Source: a virus
Taxonomy: Duplodnaviria; Heunggongvirae; Uroviricota; Caudoviricetes
DNA length: 46,881 nucleotides
Virus record (IMG/VR): IMGVR_UViG_3300018065_000012
Strand: one strand, 5' to 3'
Below the pieces are notes generated by a model. The model did no database searches. It worked only from the letters and a program-made list of their open reading frames with translations, and was not told where the DNA came from. Both the position numbers and the translations under genes were made by a program. This document shows, piece after piece, positions 3,681-40,781 of this stretch (position 1 is the first letter of the stretch; each line of letters begins with the position of its first letter).

Positions 3681-3757
3681 TGGAGCTGTAGCTCAACTGG
3701 TCAGAGTATCGGACTGTCGATCCGAGGGTTGCGGGTTCGAGTCCCGTCAGCTCCGCC
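3681..3757 (+). tRNA. tRNA-Asp(GUC)
   Basis: Acceptor GGAGCTG/CAGCTCC, D GCTC/GAGT, anticodon stem TCGGA/TCCGA loop CUGUCGA, T-arm GCGGG-TTCGAGT-CCCGT, discriminator G, CCA. Confidence 0.8.
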
Positions 3758-3765
3758 AGATGACA

Positions 3766-3793
3766 ACGCAGTGGGGAATTCCCCACTGCTTTT
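3766..3793 (+). promoter_or_regulatory. inter-tRNA hairpin CAGTGGGG-AATT-CCCCACTG followed by CTTTTGG (processing or terminator-like)
   Basis: Perfect 8-bp stem with a 4-nt loop between two tRNA genes. Confidence 0.4.
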
Positions 3794-3964: not shown

Positions 3965-4036
3965 CCAGCACGCTTCAGTGATGGGATACTTCTCCATTTT
4001 AGGAAAAAAAGCAACCTGTCGCGTTTTTTGGTGCTG
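3965..4036 (+). ncRNA. Bracketed tRNA-array element A (minimal copy of the module-bracketed family)
   Basis: 5' module CCAGCAC-GCTTCAGTG...GATACTTC, 3' module GCGTTTTTTGGTGCTGG. Terminal helix CCAGCAC/GTGCTGG. No tRNA-like insert. Confidence 0.55.
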
Positions 4037-4041
4037 GTTTA

Positions 4042-4127: not shown

Positions 4128-4261
4128 CCAGTACGCTTCAGTGAAGAGATACTTCGACTTGTAATCGAGAGGTTGCGGGTTCGAGTCCCGTCGGTTTGCT
4201 TCGGCAAACTGTAGCTCAATTGGCAGAGCGCTAAATACCTCTTTGCGTTTTTTGGTACTGG
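4128..4261 (+). ncRNA. Bracketed element B carrying a circularly permuted tRNA-Thr(UGU)-like core
   Basis: Order in DNA: 5' module, anticodon arm TTCGA-CUUGUAA-TCGAG, variable AGGTT, T-arm GCGGG-TTCGAGT-CCCGT, acceptor 3' strand CGGTTTG, then C-TTCG-G cap, acceptor 5' strand CAAACTG, TA, D-arm GCTC-AATTGGCA-GAGC, G26, 3' module. The D-arm, anticodon loop and variable loop are identical to the genuine tRNA-Thr(UGU) at 12586. Confidence 0.55.
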
Positions 4262-21885: not shown

Positions 21886-22650
21886 ATGACAAAGACAGTA
21901 GTTCCAGCGCATAGTATTGATGCGTTGATGAACAAAAAACTGTTGCGGAATCTGGAAATTCATAGCAACGCTGCCGCTGCAATATCCAAAGTTGATATTG
22001 ATTCTGGTATTGTTGCTTCTGAGGATGGCACAACCGTAATGAAAGTCAGCAGTCCTATCACTGTTGACATTGCTGCTTCCGGTGTCAATGGTCTTGACAC
22101 GGGCAGCGAAGCAGTTTCAACGTGGTATTACCTTTATATCATTTACAATCCAACGACTGATACCGAAGCTGGACTATTTTCGATTTCTGCTTCGAGTCCT
22201 ACAATGCCAAGTGGGTATACGAAAAAACGTTTGGTCAGCGCCATTTACAATCAATCTGGTGGTGACTTCTTAACATTCAAACAAGAGAACTACGAGTTTT
22301 ATCTGCTTGGTCGGCAAAGCGTCATATACGGTGGAACTGCTACGGCTTGGACTCCTCTAACAATGAGCAGTTATGTTCCAAGTAATATTTGTCGCACGGC
22401 TAAACTGAATTTGGTTGCTTTTTATGGCAGTACGAATGTTGGTACGGAATGGAGCCAACTTGCATGGAAAACAGGAACGGCTTGGACGCAGATTGATTGG
22501 CGTCGTGGAGTAAGTGGTGATTATATTGTGAATTCGCAAACATTTGATATACCATTGGACACGAAATCACCACCGACAATTTGGTATCGGAATTCAAATT
22601 CGGACTCACATTTTCGAGTATATGTCAACGGATGTAGATTGCAATTGTAG
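21886..22650 (+). CDS. Tandem paralog 1 of 6 (about 255-aa family, function unknown, probably virion-associated)
   Basis: Shared motifs: MTKTVVPAHSI, GLDTGSEAVSTWYYLYIIYNP, SSPTMPSGYTKKRL, PSNICRTAK, DIPLDTKSPPTIWY, C-terminal GCRLxL. Confidence 0.6.
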   Translation: MTKTVVPAHSIDALMNKKLLRNLEIHSNAAAAISKVDIDSGIVASEDGTTVMKVSSPITVDIAASGVNGLDTGSEAVSTWYYLYIIYNPTTDTEAGLFSISASSPTMPSGYTKKRLVSAIYNQSGGDFLTFKQENYEFYLLGRQSVIYGGTATAWTPLTMSSYVPSNICRTAKLNLVAFYGSTNVGTEWSQLAWKTGTAWTQIDWRRGVSGDYIVNSQTFDIPLDTKSPPTIWYRNSNSDSHFRVYVNGCRLQL

Positions 22651-22671
22651 AATCACTAAAGGACTTGACCG

Positions 22672-23439
22672 ATGACAAAGACAACAGTTCCAGCGCACAG
22701 TATGGAAGCGCTGATGAATAAAAAACTGTTGCGGAATCTGGAAATTCATAGCAACGCTGCCGCTGCGATTTCCAAGGTTGACATTGATTCTGGTCTTGTA
22801 GGCAGTGATGATGGAACGACTATAATGGAAGTTCCGAGTACCATTACGGTGGACATTGCGGCTTCAGGGGCTAATGGTCTTGATACAGGTTCAGAAGCGG
22901 TTTCGACTTGGTATTACTTGTACTTGATTTACAATCCAAGCACGGACACTGAGGCTGGATTGTTTTCAGCAAGCGCAAGCAGCCCCACGATGCCAAGTGG
23001 GTATACGAAGAAGCGTTTGATAAGCGCCGTCTATAATCATTCAGGTGGCGATTTTTTGACGTTCAGACAAGATGATTATGAATTTTATCAGCTTGGTTAT
23101 CAAAGTGTTTTAGCGGCTGGAACTGCTACGTCTTGGACTGCTGTTACAATGGGCAATTTTATTCCGAGTAATATTTGTCGCACAGCTAAAATGCTTGGGC
23201 TTGCTATTTACGGTGGTACGGCTGGCGTCAATAGCCGACAAAGCTATATTGCGTGGAAAACGGGAACAATTTGGACAGGTCTTATGTGGCGACGTGGGGC
23301 AAGTGGTGACCTTAATATCAATACGCAAACATTGGATATACCATTGGACACAAAATCACCGCCGACAATTTGGTATTATAACACACACGCAGCTTCAAAT
23401 TTTAATTTGTACGTTGTTGGATGTAGGCTGAACTTGTAA
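22672..23439 (+). CDS. Tandem paralog 2 of 6
   Basis: About 80% identical to paralog 1 by eye. Confidence 0.6.
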   Translation: MTKTTVPAHSMEALMNKKLLRNLEIHSNAAAAISKVDIDSGLVGSDDGTTIMEVPSTITVDIAASGANGLDTGSEAVSTWYYLYLIYNPSTDTEAGLFSASASSPTMPSGYTKKRLISAVYNHSGGDFLTFRQDDYEFYQLGYQSVLAAGTATSWTAVTMGNFIPSNICRTAKMLGLAIYGGTAGVNSRQSYIAWKTGTIWTGLMWRRGASGDLNINTQTLDIPLDTKSPPTIWYYNTHAASNFNLYVVGCRLNL

Positions 23440-23464
23440 AGAGAAATCTGGAAGAGGACTTGTA

Positions 23465-24229
23465 ATGACAAAGACAGTGCTTCCAGCGCATAGCATTGAA
23501 GTGGCGCTGAACGAAAAACTGTTGAAGGATTTGGAAATCGAATCCAATTCCTCAAACCCGACGTATCAGGTGGACATCAATTCTGGTATCGTTAGTAGTG
23601 AAGATGGAACTGTTGTGGTGGAGGTAACTTCACCAATTACAGTAGACATTACTGCTTCAGGAGTTAATGGACTCGATACGGGTTCAGAGGCAGTTTCAAC
23701 ATGGTATTATCTCTATATCATTTACAACTTGACAAGCGACACGGTTGCAGGACTTTTTTCGACAAGCGCAAGTTCGCCAACAATGCCGAGTGGGTACACA
23801 AAAAAGCGTTTGGTCAGTGCTATCTATAATCAATCTGGTGGTGATTTTTTGACCTTCAGACAAGATGATAACGAGTTTTATCTGCTTGGCTATCAAAGCA
23901 TCTTGTCTGGTGGAAGTGCTACCTCTTGGACTGCTGTAACGATGGGCAATTATGTTCCGAGCAATATTTGTCGCACGGTTAAACTCTCTTTGGTTTCCAC
24001 TTGGGGGGGGGCTGATGGCGGGTCAAAGGCTGCTTACCTTGGATGGAAAACAGGAACGATTTGGATGTCGTCTCGCTATCGTTACAGTTCCGGTGGTGAC
24101 TTGTATCGTAACTCGCATACATTTGATTTGCCATTAGACACAAAATCGCCACCGACGCTTTGGTATTATCAATCGTCATCAGTGTCAAGCCTCGCTTTGC
24201 TTGTTAATGGATGCAGACTGGATATATAA
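23465..24229 (+). CDS. Tandem paralog 3 of 6
   Basis: Same motif set; stop TAA overlaps the next start (TAATG). Confidence 0.6.
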   Translation: MTKTVLPAHSIEVALNEKLLKDLEIESNSSNPTYQVDINSGIVSSEDGTVVVEVTSPITVDITASGVNGLDTGSEAVSTWYYLYIIYNLTSDTVAGLFSTSASSPTMPSGYTKKRLVSAIYNQSGGDFLTFRQDDNEFYLLGYQSILSGGSATSWTAVTMGNYVPSNICRTVKLSLVSTWGGADGGSKAAYLGWKTGTIWMSSRYRYSSGGDLYRNSHTFDLPLDTKSPPTLWYYQSSSVSSLALLVNGCRLDI

Positions 24230-24987
24230 TGCCTGAAACTGAAATCAAAGCTGGACGCATTGACCCGTTGTTGACCAAGACGATGATACAGAGTCTTGAG
24301 ATACGTTGCAATTTTACGGACTTCGTTTACATTGACGCTGGCGTTGTCGGTTCAGATGACGGTGAGGAAATTATGGAAGTCACGGCCACTCTTTCTGTGG
24401 ATATTGACACGAACGGAGCGAACGGGCTGGACACAGGTTCACCAGCAGACAATACGTGGTATTATGTCTACGTCATAAGCAATTACACAACGGTTGCGGG
24501 TTTGCTTTCGACAAGTGCTTCTGCTCCGACAATGCCAAGTGGATATGTGAAGAAAAAAGCAGTAAGCAAATTGCGTCGTGGTACTGGCGCTTTTTACTTT
24601 GTAAGACAGTATAATGATTACGTGAAATATGCAAATAGGCTCAATGTCCTTACGAATGGAAGTGCGACATCTCGAACTCAAATCAGTCTGTCGAATTATG
24701 TTCCAGATGAAGCATACAGTGCCGACATCAATTGGAGATTCGAGCCTGATGGTACAAACATTCAAGCAAGCAGAGTGGGTTATGTTGAAGCCTTGAGTGG
24801 TTCGGCTCATCAGTGGTGTTACATGGGAATTGATGAGACGGCAAGCACAGTTTATCATTATCGCCAGTTTTGTCATATTGAATTACCGATGTATTATACC
24901 AGCCCAACAAGACTTTATTACTATCAAAGTGGTAGCGATGCTGATACTTCGCTTTGGGTTCAGGGATACAGATTGAAAGGGCTTTAG
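24229..24987 (+). CDS. Tandem paralog 4 of 6 (divergent)
   Basis: Retains GLDTGS...TWYY(V/L)Y...SAPTMPSGY(V/T)KK and C-terminal QGYRLKGL. The ORF track starts at 24211; the ATG at 24229 (TAATG junction) is preferred. Confidence 0.55.
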   Translation: MPETEIKAGRIDPLLTKTMIQSLEIRCNFTDFVYIDAGVVGSDDGEEIMEVTATLSVDIDTNGANGLDTGSPADNTWYYVYVISNYTTVAGLLSTSASAPTMPSGYVKKKAVSKLRRGTGAFYFVRQYNDYVKYANRLNVLTNGSATSRTQISLSNYVPDEAYSADINWRFEPDGTNIQASRVGYVEALSGSAHQWCYMGIDETASTVYHYRQFCHIELPMYYTSPTRLYYYQSGSDADTSLWVQGYRLKGL

Positions 24988-24991
24988 AGCA

Positions 24992-25744
24992 ATGGCTGAA
25001 ACAGTCGTACTTACAGAACGCATTCAGTCTGCATTGCTGAAGAAGGTAAATGGTCTTCGTGTCAGAGGAACAAGCGATACGGTTATAGCTATTGATTCGG
25101 GCGTTGTTGGTAGTGACGATGGTGACGTATGTATGGAAGTCACGTCCACAATTTCAGTGGATATTACGAATTCAGGTGCTAATGGATTGGATACGGGTGC
25201 GGCTGCGGCAAACACGTGGTATTACCTATTTTTGATTTATAATCCAACGACAGATACGGTTGCTGGATTGCTTTCAACGAGTCAAAGTTCGCCAACGATG
25301 CCTTTAGGATATACAAAGAAACGATGGATAAGTGCAGTGCGTCGAACCACTGTGTTGTTTCGATATACACAATGGAATGAAGAAATTTTGTTTGCTTACT
25401 ATATAGGCGTATTGAGCAATGGGAGTTCTACAAGCCGCACTCAAATCAGTTGCTCAAATTATGTTCCTGATGCTCATGCTTCTGCTTTTCTGGTTTTTGC
25501 AAATGCTACTTCATCAAATTTCCACGGAAGAGATATATGTACGATAGAGGAAGAAAGCGGCACCACGTACATGAGATTGTTCGCTGACTATGACGATGTT
25601 CCAACGCCGTTAAGTTTTATGAACCGAAACACTTGTAGCTGTTGGTTTCCAAACTATTATTCAACAGCCCGTGTGTACTATTACGTGAGTCATTCGCAAC
25701 AAGATTTAGACATTCTTATTCAAGGTTTCCAGTTGAGGTTATAA
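24992..25744 (+). CDS. Tandem paralog 5 of 6 (divergent)
   Basis: GANGLDTGAAAANTWYYLFLIYNPTTDT...SSPTMPLGYTKKR, C-terminal QGFQLRL. Confidence 0.55.
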   Translation: MAETVVLTERIQSALLKKVNGLRVRGTSDTVIAIDSGVVGSDDGDVCMEVTSTISVDITNSGANGLDTGAAAANTWYYLFLIYNPTTDTVAGLLSTSQSSPTMPLGYTKKRWISAVRRTTVLFRYTQWNEEILFAYYIGVLSNGSSTSRTQISCSNYVPDAHASAFLVFANATSSNFHGRDICTIEEESGTTYMRLFADYDDVPTPLSFMNRNTCSCWFPNYYSTARVYYYVSHSQQDLDILIQGFQLRL

Positions 25745-26819: not shown

Positions 26820-28055
26820 ATGCCGCATCTTTTGACTCAAGCCCAACAGAAGGAACAGGTGGCAGACCTTTCCTTGTATGTTGACCCTTCTGCATCGACC
26901 ATGACGGGGACAAATACTTCTGCTGTTACCAAGAAGTTGATTGACAGTGGCGGGGGTTTTTCGTCTTTGAAACCCCGTCAAGTAGTCGTCAATACCACTG
27001 ACCATACTGCTACAATTATTGATTACGTAGAAGATGACACGACACTCGTTTTGAAGAATCACATCTTTACCGCGACTTCAAAAGGCTATTCTATCGACAA
27101 CAATGCAGGAACTTCGGGTGACAAATTTAAGTATCCTCAATCAGCAATGGAAGCAGTACCAGAGACAATTGGCTTCTATCTTCATGTGTATCTTGCCGAT
27201 GGGACGTATAGCGAAATCGGAACAAGTGACATAGTGCTTGGTCGTGCAACAGTTTCAGATGCGTTTCTTTACATCAACAAAAAGATGGCGGCTGGTGGAC
27301 GTATTATAATCGAAGGCAACACGACGACTCCAGCCAACGTGCATTTTAACGGAACAACTCCATCTGCTGCTGCTGGTGTTTTAATTCAGAATGCTCAGAA
27401 AGTAGAAGTTGGAGGGTTGAAGGTATCCAACTGTACCTATGGGATTACTGCTGAAGAAAATTCATCTTTCAGGCTTTATGATGTTATTGCGACTGATTGT
27501 ACTTATGGAATTTCTTTGTTTGATGATTCGGATGGACAAGGTTGGCGGTTGATTTCTGGTCAAAGTGGGACAGGCAACACTTATGGCGTTTATATGGAGC
27601 GTGGATATTTCTACGTTTCCGATGAATCTGTTGGGTCAAGTTCATCCTCTTTGCGCTACAATGGATACAATATCTATCTAAAGACTTCGAGAATCAAAGT
27701 TATTGGAAATGCTACTGCCAATGTAAATCTTTCGGACTCGACAAATCAAGGCGTCTTTGCTACTGAAGGAAGTTCGCTTGAATTTGACCGCATTACAGTC
27801 GATAGTGCAGGGGCAGCGGGAATAGAGATAACATTTGAGAGCAGTGGAAGTGTAGCCAATTCTACTATCTCAAACAATACGGCTCAAGGAATTTTAGCGT
27901 TTAATAATTCCGTGATATACTCAGATACCAATACGGGTGCTGGAAGCACTTATGGTTTATCTGCTCAGAATGGTTCGGTAATCTCTAAGAATAGTACACA
28001 GCCTACGGGTACTGTAAGCAATGAACAAACGGTAAATGGTGGAGCGATTTACTAA
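26820..28055 (+). CDS. Tandem paralog 1 of 3: putative tailspike/depolymerase-like protein with right-handed beta-helix (pectate-lyase-like) repeats
   Basis: Conserved N-terminus (ADLSLYVD...TMTGTNTS...LKP.QVVVNT.D.TAT(I/V)(I/V)DY) followed by repeated (V/I)xNCTxGIxxxEN / NTYGxxxE beta-helix-like motifs; 411 aa. Confidence 0.55.
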   Translation: MPHLLTQAQQKEQVADLSLYVDPSASTMTGTNTSAVTKKLIDSGGGFSSLKPRQVVVNTTDHTATIIDYVEDDTTLVLKNHIFTATSKGYSIDNNAGTSGDKFKYPQSAMEAVPETIGFYLHVYLADGTYSEIGTSDIVLGRATVSDAFLYINKKMAAGGRIIIEGNTTTPANVHFNGTTPSAAAGVLIQNAQKVEVGGLKVSNCTYGITAEENSSFRLYDVIATDCTYGISLFDDSDGQGWRLISGQSGTGNTYGVYMERGYFYVSDESVGSSSSSLRYNGYNIYLKTSRIKVIGNATANVNLSDSTNQGVFATEGSSLEFDRITVDSAGAAGIEITFESSGSVANSTISNNTAQGILAFNNSVIYSDTNTGAGSTYGLSAQNGSVISKNSTQPTGTVSNEQTVNGGAIY

Positions 28056-28075
28056 ATAGGTGCAGGAGTTAGCGA

Positions 28076-29311
28076 ATGCCCCTTTTGACTCAAAACCAGA
28101 AAAAAGCGCAAGTTGCAGACCTGAGTTTGTATGTTGATAATTCTCAGTCCACAATGACAGGAACGAATACATCCGTTGTTTCCAATAAACTGATTGATTC
28201 GAGTGCAGATTTCTCGACGTTGAAACCGCATCAGGTAGTAGTGAACACAAGCGACCATACAGCGACAATCATTGACTATGTTGAAAACGATACTACAATA
28301 GTTCTGAAAGAGAATATTTTTACGGCGACTCCAAAGGGCTATTCCGTTGACAATCACACAGGTGCTTCAAGCGACAAATTCAAATATCCGCAATCGACAA
28401 TGGAATCTGTTCCTGCAAATATTGACTTTTATCTACACGTCTATATTGCTGACGGGACATACAGTGAGATTTCGGCAAGTGATATAGATACTATTCGTGG
28501 TAGCTTTGGAAAGGCTTTTCTTTTCATCAACAAAAGAATGAACGCTGGTGGGCGTATTGTTGTTGAAGGTAATACGACCACTCCCGCCAATGTTCTTTTC
28601 AATGGTACAACTCCATCGGCTGCTGTTGGTGTTCTTGTTCAAGATACTCAGAAGGTTGAAGTGAAAGGATTGAAAGTAACGAATTGTACGCATGGGATTG
28701 GTGTTGTCGAGAATTCTTTCTTGACTGTTTCCGATACCATTACAAACAGCAACAATAATGGGTTTACGGTCTATATGTACTCGTATGTTTTAGCCTCTCG
28801 GATAATTTCTGGCGAAAGTGGCGTTAAGAACACTTATGGTATATTGATGGAGTCGAGTACCTTCAATATTGACGATTCAGGTTCGGGAGCAAACTCGTCG
28901 TCGTTGCGTTACAACACTGACAACATCAATGCGTATTCTTCGACAGTCGCAGTTACAGGCAATGCTACCGCTAACGTTAATTTGTCCGATTCTACAAATT
29001 GGGGCGTCATTTTAAGAACATGCAATACAGCGATTCTTGACCGTGTTATTATTGACAGTGCGAGTTCTGGTGGGGCAATTCAAGTCAATTACGAAGGCAA
29101 TTTGAGTATCAGCAATTCTGTTATCTCAAACAATTCAACGAGAGGAATTACAGCTTATAGTAATTCCTTCGTATACTCAAGCAACAATACTGGTGCGGGT
29201 CAATCGTATGGTTTGGTTGCTCAACATGGTTCGGTTATTTTGAAGAACGGTACACAACCCACAGGAACAACGTCAAATGAACAAACATCAACAGGTGGAG
29301 CGATTTATTAA
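28076..29311 (+). CDS. Tandem paralog 2 of 3 (beta-helix tailspike-like)
   Basis: Same architecture; AGGAG SD. Confidence 0.55.
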   Translation: MPLLTQNQKKAQVADLSLYVDNSQSTMTGTNTSVVSNKLIDSSADFSTLKPHQVVVNTSDHTATIIDYVENDTTIVLKENIFTATPKGYSVDNHTGASSDKFKYPQSTMESVPANIDFYLHVYIADGTYSEISASDIDTIRGSFGKAFLFINKRMNAGGRIVVEGNTTTPANVLFNGTTPSAAVGVLVQDTQKVEVKGLKVTNCTHGIGVVENSFLTVSDTITNSNNNGFTVYMYSYVLASRIISGESGVKNTYGILMESSTFNIDDSGSGANSSSLRYNTDNINAYSSTVAVTGNATANVNLSDSTNWGVILRTCNTAILDRVIIDSASSGGAIQVNYEGNLSISNSVISNNSTRGITAYSNSFVYSSNNTGAGQSYGLVAQHGSVILKNGTQPTGTTSNEQTSTGGAIY

Positions 29312-29330
29312 GAAGGTGTAGGAGTCAGAA

Positions 29331-30569
29331 ATGCAGCATCTTTTAGTCAGAGCGCAACAGAAGGAAAAAGTCACAAGCCTTGACCTTTACGTTGATGCTT
29401 CTCAAACAACGACGACAGGAACCAACACATCTGTTGTTAGTGGAAAGCTGGTTGATTCCACCGCAGATTTTCGGTCTTTGAAACCGCATCAAGTGGTTGT
29501 CAACACAACTGATGGTACGGCTACGGTTGTCGACTATGCGGAAAACAGAACAACGTTGGTTTTGAAGAACCACATTTTCACAGCAACAAGCAAAGCATAT
29601 AGTATTGATGACCATACAGGTTCTTCAAGCGACAAATTCAAGTATCCTCAATCAGCTTTAGAAGCGATGCCTTCAACAATTGGTATTATTTCTCGTGTCT
29701 ATATTGCTGACGGTACATATAATGTGATGGGAACAACTGATGTAATTTGTAATCGTGGCGATGTTACAAAAGCTATCCTTTACGTCAACAAAAGTTTTAC
29801 TGCTGGTGGTCGTATAGACATTATAGGCAATGTATCAACTCCGGCGAATGTTGCTTTTAATGGTACAACTCCTTCTTCGAATGCTGGTGTATTCGTTCAA
29901 GGCAGTCAGAAAATAGAAGTTGAAGGAATCAAGGTAACGAATTGTGTGCATGGGATTACTGCTCAAGAAAAATCATCGGTAGAGGTTTTCGATACGATTA
30001 CAAATAGCAACACTTATGGGTTGTCTGTTTTTTCTCAATCGGTTATGGATTGTTTTAGGGTAATTTCTGGCGAGAGTGGTGCGGGAAATTCTTATGGCGC
30101 ATACCTCGAAGACAGCAATTGTTACATTGCAGATTCAGCTTCAGGAGCAAATTCGTCTTCGCTTCGTTATAATACGACAAACAATATCTATGCGGTGTTT
30201 TCAAGATTGAGGGCGTTGGGCAATGTTACTGCCAATGTGAACTTGTCCAATGCTACGGGATGGGGAGTAATTGCAAGCAGAGGCAGCACGGTAGATTTTG
30301 ACTATGTAACGATTGACAGTTCGGGTGCAGGGGGTTTTCAGGCTACATATGAGAGCAATGCCAGTTTAAGGGATTCCGTTGTTTCAAATAATACCACTTG
30401 GGGCATTTCAGCCGACCTTAATTCGTATGTGAACTCCCGTGATATGAGTGGTGCTGGAAATGATTATGGTTTGGTTTCTGAACTTGGCTCCGTTGTTCAG
30501 AAAGTCGGTACACAGCCCACAGGAGTATCAGGAAACGAATTGACAGCTACGGGCGGTACGATTATCTAA
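29331..30569 (+). CDS. Tandem paralog 3 of 3 (beta-helix tailspike-like)
   Basis: Same architecture; AGGAG SD. Confidence 0.55.
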   Translation: MQHLLVRAQQKEKVTSLDLYVDASQTTTTGTNTSVVSGKLVDSTADFRSLKPHQVVVNTTDGTATVVDYAENRTTLVLKNHIFTATSKAYSIDDHTGSSSDKFKYPQSALEAMPSTIGIISRVYIADGTYNVMGTTDVICNRGDVTKAILYVNKSFTAGGRIDIIGNVSTPANVAFNGTTPSSNAGVFVQGSQKIEVEGIKVTNCVHGITAQEKSSVEVFDTITNSNTYGLSVFSQSVMDCFRVISGESGAGNSYGAYLEDSNCYIADSASGANSSSLRYNTTNNIYAVFSRLRALGNVTANVNLSNATGWGVIASRGSTVDFDYVTIDSSGAGGFQATYESNASLRDSVVSNNTTWGISADLNSYVNSRDMSGAGNDYGLVSELGSVVQKVGTQPTGVSGNELTATGGTII

Positions 30570-34130: not shown

Positions 34131-34137
34131 AATACAA

Positions 34138-34271
34138 AAGGCACGCTTCAGTGAAGAGTTACTTCCCTTCGGCGGACGAAGTTCAGGTTCGATTCCTGAC
34201 CCTCCAACCATGATGGAGGGTAGTGTAATGGTAGCACGCGTAAAATATCTCTTTGCGTCTTTTGGTGCCTT
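34138..34271 (+). ncRNA. Bracketed element C1 with a permuted tRNA-like core (acceptor closed by an ACCATGA loop that encodes the discriminator and CCA)
   Basis: Terminal helix AAGGCAC/GTGCCTT; 5' module GCTTCAGTGAAGAGTTACTTC; T-arm TCAGG-TTCGATT-CCTGA; CCCTCCA-ACCATGA-TGGAGGG; D-arm GTGT-AATGGTA-GCAC; 3' module ...CTCTTTGCGTCTTTTGG. The anticodon region is aberrant. Confidence 0.5.
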
Positions 34272-34280
34272 TTATATTTT

Positions 34281-34388
34281 TCAGCACGCTTCAGTGATGA
34301 CATACTTCTTGGTTCAACTCCAACATCGCCCTCTATATGGGCGATGGTGCCACGTGGGTGGCGGTGTTGTTACGTTTTTTGGTGCTGA
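34281..34388 (+). ncRNA. Bracketed element C2 with a permuted tRNA-like core lacking an anticodon arm
   Basis: Terminal helix TCAGCAC/GTGCTGA; T-arm TTGG-TTCAACT-CCAA; acceptor CATCGCC-loop-GGCGATG; D-arm GCCA-CGTGGG-TGGC; 3' module CGTTTTTTGG. Confidence 0.5.
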
Positions 34389-34404
34389 ACTTTTTGAATA
34401 AATT

Positions 34405-34513
34405 CCGGCACGCTTCAGCGTGGGCTTACTTCTTTCTTAAAAAAAGAACCTGCCTGTTCGATTCAGGTGTTGGGTGGACCCGGTACAATTCGCTCATGCG
34501 TCTTTTGGTGCTG
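34405..34513 (+). ncRNA. Bracketed element C3 (anticodon-like arm and T-arm, degenerate acceptor and D parts)
   Basis: Terminal helix CCGGCAC/GTGCTGG (one G-U); TTCTTT-CUUAAAA-AAAGAA arm; T-arm GCCTG-TTCGATT-CAGGT; 3' module GCGTCTTTTGG. Confidence 0.45.
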
Positions 34514-34518
34514 GATTT

Positions 34519-34593
34519 AGCGGTGTTAGTGTATTGGTTGCACATTTGGTTCCCAGCCAGAAGGAGCCAGTTCGAGTCTGGTACACCGCTCCA
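34519..34593 (+). tRNA. tRNA-Gly(CCC)
   Basis: Acceptor GCGGTGT/ACACCGC, D GTGT/GCAC, anticodon stem TTTGG/CCAGA loop UUCCCAG, T-arm GCCAG-TTCGAGT-CTGGT, U73, CCA. Confidence 0.75.
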
Positions 34594-34676: not shown

Positions 34677-34752
34677 GCAGGCGCATGTTCCAAGGCTGGC
34701 GACGGGGATTCCAAATCCTTGTGGGTAGGTTCGATTCCTACCGTCTGCGCCA
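34677..34752 (+). tRNA. tRNA-Trp(CCA), copy 1
   Basis: Acceptor GCAGGCG/CGTCTGC, irregular D-arm, anticodon stem GGGGA/TCCTT loop UUCCAAA, T-arm GTAGG-TTCGATT-CCTAC, G73, CCA. Confidence 0.7.
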
Positions 34753-34836: not shown

Positions 34837-34928
34837 GGAGAGTGTTCCCCACGGCAGACTGTAAATCTGTTGCCCATCAGAATAAGTGGGGTGGCGGCGA
34901 ATGGGTTCAATTCCCTCACTCTCCACCA
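34837..34928 (+). tRNA. atypical tRNA-Tyr(GUA)-like, 92 nt: 8-bp acceptor, no canonical D-arm, enlarged variable region (possible pseudo-tRNA)
   Basis: Acceptor GGAGAGTG/CACTCTCC; anticodon arm GCAGA-CUGUAAA-TCTGT; only TT-CCCC-ACG between the acceptor and anticodon stems; GTGGGG in the variable region could pair with CCCC; weak T-stem GGG/CCC; A73, CCA. Confidence 0.4.
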
Positions 34929-34932
34929 TTAA

Positions 34933-35018
34933 GGAGCGGTAGTCTAATTGGTAAGGCAGTGGGCTGTAAACCCACCGGCATTGCGCCATTGGAGGTTCGA
35001 GTCCTCCCCGCTCCACCA
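34933..35018 (+). tRNA. tRNA-Tyr(GUA), class II
   Basis: Acceptor GGAGCGG/CCGCTCC, D GTCT/AGGC, anticodon stem GTGGG/CCCAC loop CUGUAAA, variable arm CGGCATTGCGCCAT, T-arm GGAGG-TTCGAGT-CCTCC, A73, CCA. Confidence 0.8.
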
Positions 35019-35786: not shown

Positions 35787-35962
35787 GCTGGAAAGATTTT
35801 CTTTACGGCGCGGCATCTGTTCTCGACTTGTCTGGTTCAATGGGCAATGCGCAAGTGAATGAAATTTTGCGCAAGTCTGACGCGGAAGCATTGAGGTCAG
35901 ATTGGGAAGCAGTTGGACAAGACATGTGGAAGGCGATTGAACAATCTGAAGATGTCGGGTGA
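35783..35962 (+). CDS. small acidic hypothetical protein (59 aa), translationally coupled to cd
   Basis: ATGA overlap with the cd stop; MSWKDFLYGAASVLDLSGSMGNAQVNEILRKSDAEALRSDWEAVGQDMWKAIEQSEDVG*. The stop lies inside the next tRNA. Confidence 0.45.
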   Translation: MSWKDFLYGAASVLDLSGSMGNAQVNEILRKSDAEALRSDWEAVGQDMWKAIEQSEDVG

Positions 35963-36038
35963 GCGCAGCTGGTGCTGTGAGTGGCCTGCAAAGCCATTTG
36001 GCCTTTGGGTCCAACTGGTTCGATTCCAGCATCCGACT
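35954..36038 (+). tRNA. tRNA-Sec-like (8/4 'allo-tRNA' architecture) tRNA with GCA (Cys) anticodon
   Basis: 8-bp acceptor GTCGGGTG/CATCCGAC; 6-bp D-stem CGCAGC/GCTGTG with 4-nt loop TGGT; 6-bp anticodon stem AGTGGC/GCCATT with loop CUGCAAA; long variable arm TGGCCTTTGGGTCCAA; 4-bp T-stem CTGG/CCAG with loop TTCGATT; U73; no encoded CCA. Confidence 0.5.
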
Positions 36039-40705: not shown

Positions 40706-40770
40706 TCGACACGCTTCAGCGCAAAGATACTTCTTGGTATAGAAAAGCTTTGCTCGATTTTTGGTGTCGA
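40706..40770 (+). ncRNA. Bracketed element D (minimal copy) in its own promoter-to-hairpin unit
   Basis: Terminal helix TCGACAC/GTGTCGA; 5' module GCTTCAGCGCAAAGATACTTC; inner helix GCAAAG/CTTTGC; 3' module TCGATTTTTGG. Confidence 0.55.
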
Positions 40771-40781
40771 TTTTCTTAATA

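Follow-up and report, generated by a model that had tools for sequence, protein, structure and literature searches.

The window analysed here, the full 46,881 nucleotides (nt) of the Caudoviricetes record IMGVR_UViG_3300018065_000012 from IMG/VR, carries at 34837-34928 (+) a 92-nt gene whose product resembles a transfer RNA (tRNA) for tyrosine and has no D arm. We found that this element belongs to a family of RNAs from viral contigs and bacterial chromosomes in which a long-range helix (H1) replaces the D stem and crosses a second helix (H2) at the variable-arm position. It is close to certain that the element is a genuine structured RNA, conserved as part of this family, and the sequence evidence indicates that it is probably a functional tRNA-Tyr with a non-cloverleaf core. 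It lies in a tightly spaced tRNA cluster of the order Gly-Phe-Trp-Trp-X-Tyr, where X is the element; 6 nt separate it from the upstream tRNA-Trp and 4 nt from the downstream canonical tRNA-Tyr.

A family of RNAs with five covarying helices

From 5' to 3', the first half of the element reads GGAGAGUG UU CCCCAC G GCAGA CUGUAAA UCUGU U GCC CAUCAGAAUAA and the second half GUGGGG UGG C GGCG AA UGGG UUCAAUU CCCU CACUCUCC A CCA. Its ends form the perfect acceptor stem of 8 base pairs (bp) that the original prediction had described, with GGAGAGUG (34837-34844) paired at 8/8 positions to CACUCUCC (34917-34924); the discriminator A73 (34925) and an encoded CCA (34926-34928) follow in the sequence. After a UU linker (34845-34846) comes H1a, CCCCAC (34847-34852), the 5' strand of the long-range helix, which pairs 6/6 with H1b, GUGGGG (34886-34891), and runs straight into the anticodon stem by way of a single purine, G34853, the position-26 equivalent, which faces U34871, the position-44 equivalent. 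The 9 nt UU CCCCAC G (34845-34853) are all that lies between the acceptor and anticodon stems, and a D stem-loop is absent, as had been noted. The anticodon arm, GCAGA-CUGUAAA-UCUGU (34854-34870), consists of a 5-bp stem and a 7-nt loop, CUGUAAA, with U33, A37 and the anticodon GUA at 34861-34863. This arm had been called identical to that of the classic bacterial tRNA-Tyr; the sequence is as described, but the last base of its stem is a U, forming a G.U pair, where the Escherichia coli tRNA has a C.

The variable region is enlarged to 31 nt (34871-34901) and does contain GUGGGG. It begins with H2a, UGCC (34871-34874), which pairs with H2b, GGCG (34896-34899), through U.G, G-C, C-G and C-G. 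From H2a an A/U-rich loop of 11 nt, CAUCAGAAUAA (34875-34885), leads back to H1b, and H1b is followed directly by UGG (34892-34894), the proposed equivalent of the D-loop residues G18 and G19. The T arm, UGGG-UUCAAUU-CCCU (34902-34916; stem 34902-34905 with 34913-34916), is weak, as the original prediction had it, with three G-C pairs and a terminal U.U. Every helix of the window copy is nevertheless complete: acceptor 8/8, H1 6/6, anticodon 5/5, H2 4/4 with one U.G, and T three pairs plus U.U. The window copy is an intact family member, unusual only in its 11-nt loop and in the canonical tRNA-Tyr next to it.

A search with the exact anticodon arm gave 57 matches, mostly ordinary tRNA-Tyr, among which only two loci, L011 and L056, were relevant. 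These share the D-arm-less layout and are near-identical to each other over the stretches compared; relative to the window copy they carry compensatory changes, CCCAAC/GUUGGG for CCCCAC/GUGGGG and, in the T stem, AGG/CCU for GGG/CCC, and they differ from it in the acceptor stem. A wider pattern, TTCC-N(2-6)-GNNGACTGTAAATC, applied to IMG/VR and followed by a structural filter, brought the number of distinct core homologues in viral contigs to at least 55, the window copy counted and four divergent ones set aside. In the consensus, the 5' half is made of an acceptor strand of 8 nt, UU, H1a of 6 nt (CCNNNN), a purine (G in 48/55, A in 7/55) and a 5-bp anticodon stem with the loop CUGUAAA; the middle, of U, H2a of 3-5 nt, an A/U-rich loop of 4-11 nt (mode 7), H1b of 6 nt (NNNNGG) and YGG; and the 3' half, of a linker of 1-4 nt, H2b, a further 1-2 nt, a four-position T stem with the loop UUCRAYU, the 8-nt acceptor strand, A and CCA. 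Total length varies from 86 to 96 nt. The triplet after H1b is YGG in 54/55 members and AGG in the remaining one, so that no Tyr member lacks either G, although nothing in the search pattern demanded them. The T loop fits UUCRAYU in 54 of the 55. Five divergent members (L069, L117, L129, L149 and L190) lack YGG and also lack the canonical UUCRAYU T loop, a joint loss that fits the predicted contact between YGG and the T loop, in a small sample of which L129 and L149 are related.

Covariation was scored on an alignment (A2) condensed from an anchor-based parse, in which the acceptor, H1, anticodon, H2 and T stems were annotated and H1 and H2 were written as crossing helices. Standard pairs filled 97.3% of its cells, against 77.1% in shuffles, and its covariation score was 0.558, a value reached by 0/500 shuffles (shuffled score 0.150); sliding the partners by 1-3 columns lowered the paired fraction to 40-60%. 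In the acceptor stem 99.5% of cells were paired and 7/8 pairs had changed on both sides, the invariant one being G1-C72. H1 was fully paired in 55/55 homologues through 24 different strand combinations (100% of A2 cells, with changes on both sides at 4/6 pairs). Two pairs of the anticodon stem covary. For H2, 97.2% of cells were paired and 3/4 pairs had changed on both sides, with pair types as diverse as GCC/GGC, GGC/GCC, GAC/GUC, ACC/GGU, GCUU/AAGC, GGUA/UACC and GCAC/GUGC. The outermost T-stem position forms a standard pair in 28/54 distinct members and a mismatch in 26/54, the U.U of the window among the mismatches. An analysis independent of A2, RNAalifold on an unedited MAFFT alignment (A1), returned the acceptor, H1, anticodon and T helices and no D hairpin, with changes on both sides in 15/23 pairs. 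Since A1 misaligns the 3' strand of H2, whose preceding linker varies in length, H2 was scored on A2 with cross-sequence controls: its pairing averaged 4.89/5 within a sequence and 3.91/5 when the H2a region was set against the H2b region of sequences with another H2a core. All five helices covary, and the family exists. The pairing of the orphan CCCC(AC) with GUGGGG, suggested earlier for the window copy, is borne out by covariation in all 55 homologues. The strands follow one another in the order H1a, H2a, H1b, H2b; H1b thus stands between H2a and H2b, so that H1 and H2 cross and form a pseudoknot.

The tyrosine slot of tRNA arrays and its detection

The element escapes the standard tools. 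ARAGORN called 47 tRNAs in the window, with every one of the 20 amino acids represented, and the element was not among them; an Rfam scan of the window at gathering thresholds did not report it either. In a permissive scan its best match, tRNA-Sec (RF01852), reached 28.9 bits where the gathering score is 47, while its match to RF00005, whose threshold is 29 bits, scored below 28.9 bits and was suppressed. Of 12 other family members, 0/12 reached any gathering score of Rfam 15. The original prediction had left room for a standard cloverleaf with a normal D arm, to be found by automated tRNA prediction or covariance-model alignment; ARAGORN gave no call on the element and no cloverleaf, and the Rfam models gave none for the window element or for family members. 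A 96-nt 'tRNA-Tyr' that ARAGORN reported in L198 proved to be a mis-registered call over a family member, starting 10 nt upstream of the match to our own covariance model (R1, built from the 55 homologues). This model scored the window element, which is one of its 55 training sequences, at 90.1 bits (E = 2e-26), well beyond what chance would give and in the middle of the family range of 58-105 bits, and had no other match above 25 bits in the window, so that the element is the only member there. For comparison, the adjacent canonical tRNA-Tyr (34933-35018) scored 62.5 bits with Rfam. The canonical neighbours also appear to encode CCA, the ARAGORN ends lying 3 nt past the Rfam ends.

We then asked where the element sits relative to other tRNA genes. 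According to ARAGORN calls on 48 element-carrying loci, it lies inside tRNA arrays and fills their Tyr slot. Four arrays, those of L064 (36 tRNAs), L085 (37), L095 (27) and L112 (26), encode 19 specificities each, the only one without a canonical tRNA being Tyr, and each contains the element. Were the missing specificity random, finding Tyr missing from 4/4 of the most complete arrays would have a chance of about (1/20)^4. A canonical tRNA-Tyr accompanies the element in 3/48 loci (L103, L143 and L159) and in the window; in L103, as in the window, the two stand next to each other. Tyr therefore seems to be absent from such arrays because the search models miss the element.

Members with other anticodons were also found. 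R1 detected two, one for Arg (UCU) in L132 (7007-7095, -), a contig that also holds a Tyr member, and one for Cys (GCA) in L196 (1219-1307, +); the L132 Arg member, found by R1 alone, has UC at the position of the UU linker. Anticodon-free pattern scans with the structural filter collected 18 UCU, 12 UAU, one CCA and one GCA sequence; besides L132 and L196, the loci with non-Tyr members are L221, L314 and about 30 other viral loci (L205-L306). Although R1 was trained on Tyr members only, it gave non-Tyr members 49.6-68.7 bits, against at most about 36 bits for canonical tRNAs. These RNAs retain U33 and R37, both of which the search pattern set in the pattern-derived non-Tyr set, and 31/32 of the non-Tyr sequences encode CCA. 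Of the members with a GUA anticodon, 62/62 have A73 and 50/62 encode CCA, features that the filters did not impose.

The identity of the discriminator base goes with that of the anticodon: Tyr and Ile members have A, Arg members A, G or U, the Trp member G and the Cys member U. For all five specificities this agrees with the bacterial identity determinants in PMC9976931, whose Table 1 lists A73, G34 and U35 for tyrosyl-tRNA synthetase (TyrRS). The window element has them all, with A at 34925 and GUA at 34861-34863, and it would accordingly be a candidate for charging by a bacterial TyrRS and for use on the ribosome. Taken together, the array slot, A73 with CCA and the match between discriminator and anticodon argue for the predicted charging by cognate synthetases and against both a pseudogene and a pure decoy.

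Proposed fold and competing explanations

We propose that the element acts as an elongator tRNA-Tyr (GUA) whose core is not a cloverleaf, and that it would be transcribed within the polycistronic cluster Gly-Phe-Trp-Trp-X-Tyr. In the model, the 8 bp of the acceptor stem and the 4 bp of the T stem would stack into 12 layers, as many as the canonical 7/5 arrangement provides. H1a (nt 11-16), running into the position-26 purine and the anticodon stem, would stand where a normal D stem has its 3' strand, and H1b, inside the variable region, would be the equivalent of its 5' strand; H1 would in effect be a strand-swapped D stem. The GG after H1b may reach the T loop as G18 and G19 do. H2, extending from just after the position-44 U to 1-2 nt before the T stem, would occupy the site of the class II variable-arm stem. 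The fold could then be described as a class II tRNA whose 'variable loop' supplies one D-stem strand and the GG of the D loop, or, in terms of topology, as an H-type pseudoknot of H1 and H2 whose first loop contains the anticodon arm. On balance, and somewhat less firmly than for the element itself, we favor the wider view that these RNAs form a new class of elongator tRNA, with a strand-swapped long-range D stem pseudoknotted with a variable-arm stem and at least five specificities (Tyr, Arg-UCU, Ile-UAU, Trp and Cys), carried in the arrays of large phages and of bacterial chromosomes, notably those of Planctomycetota, and missed systematically by standard finders, so that Tyr appears to be 'missing'.

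Several observations weigh against this interpretation. A canonical tRNA-Tyr lies only 4 nt downstream of the element, so that the window copy is possibly redundant. The search pattern fixed TTCC, and the invariance of the UU linker (TT in 55/55 family members) is therefore partly a matter of construction; the same pattern fixed the anticodon loop of the Tyr set. Many of the contigs are related, and the sequence counts exceed the number of independent events. In the parse behind A2, the best complement was taken as H1b, which does lie directly before YGG in every case, and H2b was selected from three offsets. The outer T-stem position of the window copy is a U.U, its loop of 11 nt is unusually long, and its minimum-free-energy fold, with a z-score of only -1.9, places GUGGG in a hairpin that competes with H1. 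We rejected this hairpin (CCCAU/GUGGG) as a consensus element; it is specific to the window and is not conserved in the homologues. In the Arg (UCU) subgroup H2 is often just 2-3 bp long. Finally, the coexistence of H1 and H2 in an L-shaped molecule, which we regard as rather likely, is drawn from topology only.

Might the element instead be a tRNA mimic that acts outside translation? It could serve as a decoy or sponge for tRNA-targeting defence nucleases, as a regulator or as the substrate of another enzyme, keeping its tRNA-like ends and anticodon loop only for recognition. Some translation factors might well reject a non-canonical core, the window has its adjoining canonical tRNA-Tyr and, in the YrlA-like modules described below, other tRNA mimics, and a phage tRNA-Tyr is known to counter retron defence (PMC11555353). 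This explanation nevertheless seems unlikely to us, since the element is the sole RNA with a Tyr anticodon in four near-complete arrays and its discriminator obeys aminoacylation identity rules across five anticodons, which a pure decoy would have little reason to keep; the element also retains the CCA, the canonical T loop and the 8/4 branch with its 12 layers. Decoy and translational roles are, in any case, mutually compatible.

Descent from the neighbouring gene was one of two origins suggested by the original prediction, according to which the element would be a decaying duplicate of the adjacent canonical tRNA-Tyr with its D arm deleted. The two genes are 4 nt apart and have the anticodon in common, and the lack of any ARAGORN or Rfam call is what a pseudogene would give. 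We consider this origin very improbable, however: the architecture and compensatory changes in every helix recur in bacterial genomes and, across many contigs, in no fewer than 55 distinct sequences, no helix of the window copy is broken, its 90-bit score is typical of the family, and a global alignment with the neighbour has only 57/103 identical columns, with differences in the acceptor and anticodon stems. The divergence of the homologues also excludes recent copies of one sequence or assembly artefacts. Hardly more credible is an ordinary cloverleaf, or an 8/4 cloverleaf of the tRNA-Sec or allo-tRNA type, whose D arm the tools overlooked. The Rfam tRNA-Sec model does align the acceptor, anticodon and T arms, and the 8/4 acceptor/T branch is that of allo-tRNAs, but the same alignment leaves a 6-nt stub for the D arm and marks the V-arm pairs as non-standard; the 9 nt available between the stems are paired with a distant segment in all 55 members, and not one of the twelve members tested reached an Rfam gathering score. 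A functional tRNA-Tyr with a non-cloverleaf core remains our preferred explanation.

Such a tRNA would have several known relatives in form. With canonical class II tRNA-Tyr the element shares GUA, a 5-bp/7-nt anticodon arm, U33, A37, A73, G1-C72, CCA, UUCRAYU, a helix (H2) at the site of the long variable arm and the setting in a tRNA cluster; it differs in having no D hairpin, in the reversed strand connectivity of H1, which crosses H2, in its 8/4 instead of 7/5 branch, and in falling below the ARAGORN and Rfam thresholds. The (8/4) tRNAs and allo-tRNAs (PMC5389517) likewise split a 12-bp branch 8/4, occur in phage clusters and bacterial genomes and were discovered at the scale of metagenomes; 8/4 tRNA-Ser and tRNA-His are reported there from tRNA clusters of alphaproteobacterial phages (Mukai et al. 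2017). Those RNAs, however, keep the cloverleaf, including a long D stem-loop and a hairpin in the V arm, and the element has neither: its H2 encloses H1b and YGG and not a hairpin loop, as the V arm of an allo-tRNA does. The specificities reported in the text of that paper that was searched are Ser, His, Cys, Sec and allo-tRNA suppressors, with no mention of Tyr or of a pseudoknotted core. Bacterial tRNA-Sec (RF01852) resembles the element in its long acceptor stem and in a helix of 6 bp, the length of its D stem, but has UCA in place of GUA, 13 layers in place of 12 and a D hairpin, and its model gives the element 28.9 bits where 47 are required.

The absence of a D hairpin recalls the D-armless mitochondrial tRNAs, such as metazoan mitochondrial tRNA-Ser(AGY) and those of nematodes, which function as tRNAs (reviewed in PMC7609411). 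These are shrunken, with degenerate T loops and an unpaired loop in place of the D arm, and rely on adapted partner proteins, whereas the element is enlarged to 86-96 nt in its family, has a canonical T loop and GG, and builds a D-stem-like helix by long-range pairing. A pseudoknot in the service of tRNA mimicry is also found in the 3' tRNA-like structures (TLS) of plant viruses, for instance TLS-Val of turnip yellow mosaic virus and TLS-Tyr of brome mosaic virus, some of which are tyrosylated (PMC7749636, PMC9976931). There, the pseudoknot builds the acceptor arm at the end of a genomic RNA, while in the element it forms the core of a free-standing, CCA-ended RNA whose gene sits among the tRNA genes of DNA phages and bacteria. 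We found no prior description of the fold in the literature, including PMC5389517, PMC7609411, PMC8421152 and PMC7590224, a coverage that is incomplete and leaves absence unproven; a 2024 paper states that all known bacterial tRNAs are canonical cloverleaves (PMC11551756). A widespread phage and bacterial tRNA family with a new core topology thus appears to be undescribed.

If its members are charged and decode, they would be natural counter-examples to the canonical core, and RNase P, the CCA-adding and modification enzymes, at least five aminoacyl-tRNA synthetases, EF-Tu and the ribosome would have to tolerate another strand connectivity. The tRNA annotation of phages and of array sets is at present incomplete, the apparent absence of Tyr being an artefact of the search models, and the fold offers a natural, possibly orthogonal scaffold for tRNA engineering. 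One may speculate that the fold lets phages escape factors, nucleases among them, by which the canonical tRNA core is recognised, and the question is raised whether an altered core lets phages evade tRNA-targeting defences. Cultured Planctomycetes carry these genes, which makes the question of charging and decoding directly testable.

Distribution and neighbouring RNAs

Against 50,697 GenBank phage records, BLAST found, at its sensitivity, no full-length homologue of the element in a cultured phage, hence no public annotation for comparison, and no close relative of the window phage. The proteins encoded around the tRNA array of the window look phage-like and include tail-needle or fibre-like proteins, a thymidylate kinase and a dCMP deaminase. 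In a scan of bacteria with one genome per species, the element was found in chromosomes, inside arrays of at least 20 tRNA genes. Its main bacterial carriers are Planctomycetota (Rhodopirellula, Novipirellula, Neorhodopirellula, Rubripirellula and metagenome-assembled genomes (MAGs) of Phycisphaerae), a phylum for which, among others, long tRNA arrays have been reported (PMC8421152). Cultured carriers include Novipirellula sp. SH528, whose complete chromosome has two matching loci, Neorhodopirellula pilleata Pla100, Rhodopirellula europaea 6C and Rubripirellula obstinata. The element also occurs on MAG contigs attributed to Spiribacter, Flavobacterium, Bacteroidota, Verrucomicrobiales and Anaerolineales. 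A Thr-Tyr-Gly-Thr tRNA cluster with a canonical tRNA-Tyr lies about 4.4 kb away from the array copy in L182; the element there is therefore part of an accessory array and not of the host core tRNA set.

Some other features recur in these arrays. The motif AGAGTGTTACAAATTT stands directly upstream of the family member in L011, L085, L125, L143, L146, L150, L173 and others, and in L011 it falls within a promoter-like TTGACA-N18-TACAAA site; the window copy has no AGAGTGTTACAAATTT motif upstream, yet happens to start with GGAGAGTGTT. A tRNA-Ile(UAU) of about 92 nt, called by ARAGORN, occurs in related phage arrays at L064 11033-11124, L072 3303-3394, L085 5078-5169, L112 7368-7458, L157 8515-8606, L165 715-805 and L107 12781-12876. 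We considered these RNAs as candidates for the same fold and rejected them, for they are cloverleaves with a normal D arm and a long variable arm, a class II-like form that is unusual for tRNA-Ile. ARAGORN also reported permuted two-piece transfer-messenger RNAs (tmRNAs) in family-carrying arrays, at L094 5899-6278, L106 4076-4467, L112 11753-12256 and L157 9853-10329, with tags that include ANDSVYALAA and ANDEQFALAA, and made tmRNA calls with the tag ANYDAIPQAA at L081 4727-5082. In L177, a Bacteroidota MAG contig with a family member, it called a 'tRNA-Stop' with a UUA anticodon and a tRNA with the 4-base anticodon UCAA (2274-2353 and 3703-3776).

The second origin that the original prediction had allowed for the element was kinship with permuted elements nearby. 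These are probably the six scaffold units that we located at 3966-4037, 4129-4258, 34139-34270, 34282-34392, 34406-34512 and 40707-40772 of the window, three of which lie in the gap at 34131-34519. Each begins with (A)GCACGC-UUCAG-YG (GCACGCUUCAG-YG), 6-7 variable nt and UACUUC, continues with a cargo and ends with another 6-7 variable nt followed by GCGU(C/U)UUUUGGUGC. The two variable segments form a covarying helix of 6-7 bp (GAAGAG/CUCUUU, GAUGACA/UGUUGUU, GUGGGC/GCUCAU, GAUGGG/CCUGUC, GCAAAG/CUUUGC). In 4/6 units the cargo is a tRNA-like module with a T arm, a loop-capped acceptor stem and a D arm, and in 2/6 it is short. We rejected their reading as permuted tRNA genes, as the acceptor stems are capped by loops and the ends of the units form the covarying scaffold helix. 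The Rfam YrlA model, whose gathering score is 69, aligned to tRNA-like modules at 33.9 bits (E = 7e-6) and 24.4 bits, short of that score in both cases, and the units are best read as Y-RNA-like tRNA mimics.

The proposed kinship does not hold: the nearby units are YrlA-type scaffolds with capped tRNA-like modules and are unrelated to the Tyr element. The scaffold motif GCACGCTTCAG is absent from 34837-34928, and near the element the YrlA model gave only 15.6 bits (E = 1.1), over the neighbouring stretch. Unlike a Y RNA of the YrlA type, the element lacks the scaffold motif and has an anticodon arm of its own, and its termini are free, with CCA at the 3' end. The motif is also present in four IMG/VR contigs (L322-L325) that are relatives of the window phage; no family member was found in the stretches of them that were examined.

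Two other tRNA genes of the window are unusual. The RNA at 35953-36038 has a Cys (GCA) anticodon yet matches Rfam tRNA-Sec at 60.6 bits (gathering score 47); its stems measure 8 bp (acceptor), 6 bp (D, closing a loop of 4 nt) and 4 bp (T), which recalls the 8/4 'minor cysteine tRNA' type of Mukai et al. 2017 (PMC5389517). The first of the two adjacent tRNA-Trp(CCA) genes (34681-34752, 72 nt, anticodon at position 31) is called by ARAGORN only, scoring too low for the gathering cut-off of the Rfam tRNA model, and no D stem is obvious in its D region, CAUGUUCCAAGGCUGGCGAC. The tRNA array itself is split by a 20-kb block of protein-coding genes with two tandem runs of paralogues, at 21886-25744 and 26820-30569: five open reading frames (ORFs) of about 250-258 amino acids with a weak match to the second domain of Mtd, and three ORFs of 411-412 amino acids with a right-handed beta-helix. 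These runs look like diversified receptor-binding or depolymerase modules.

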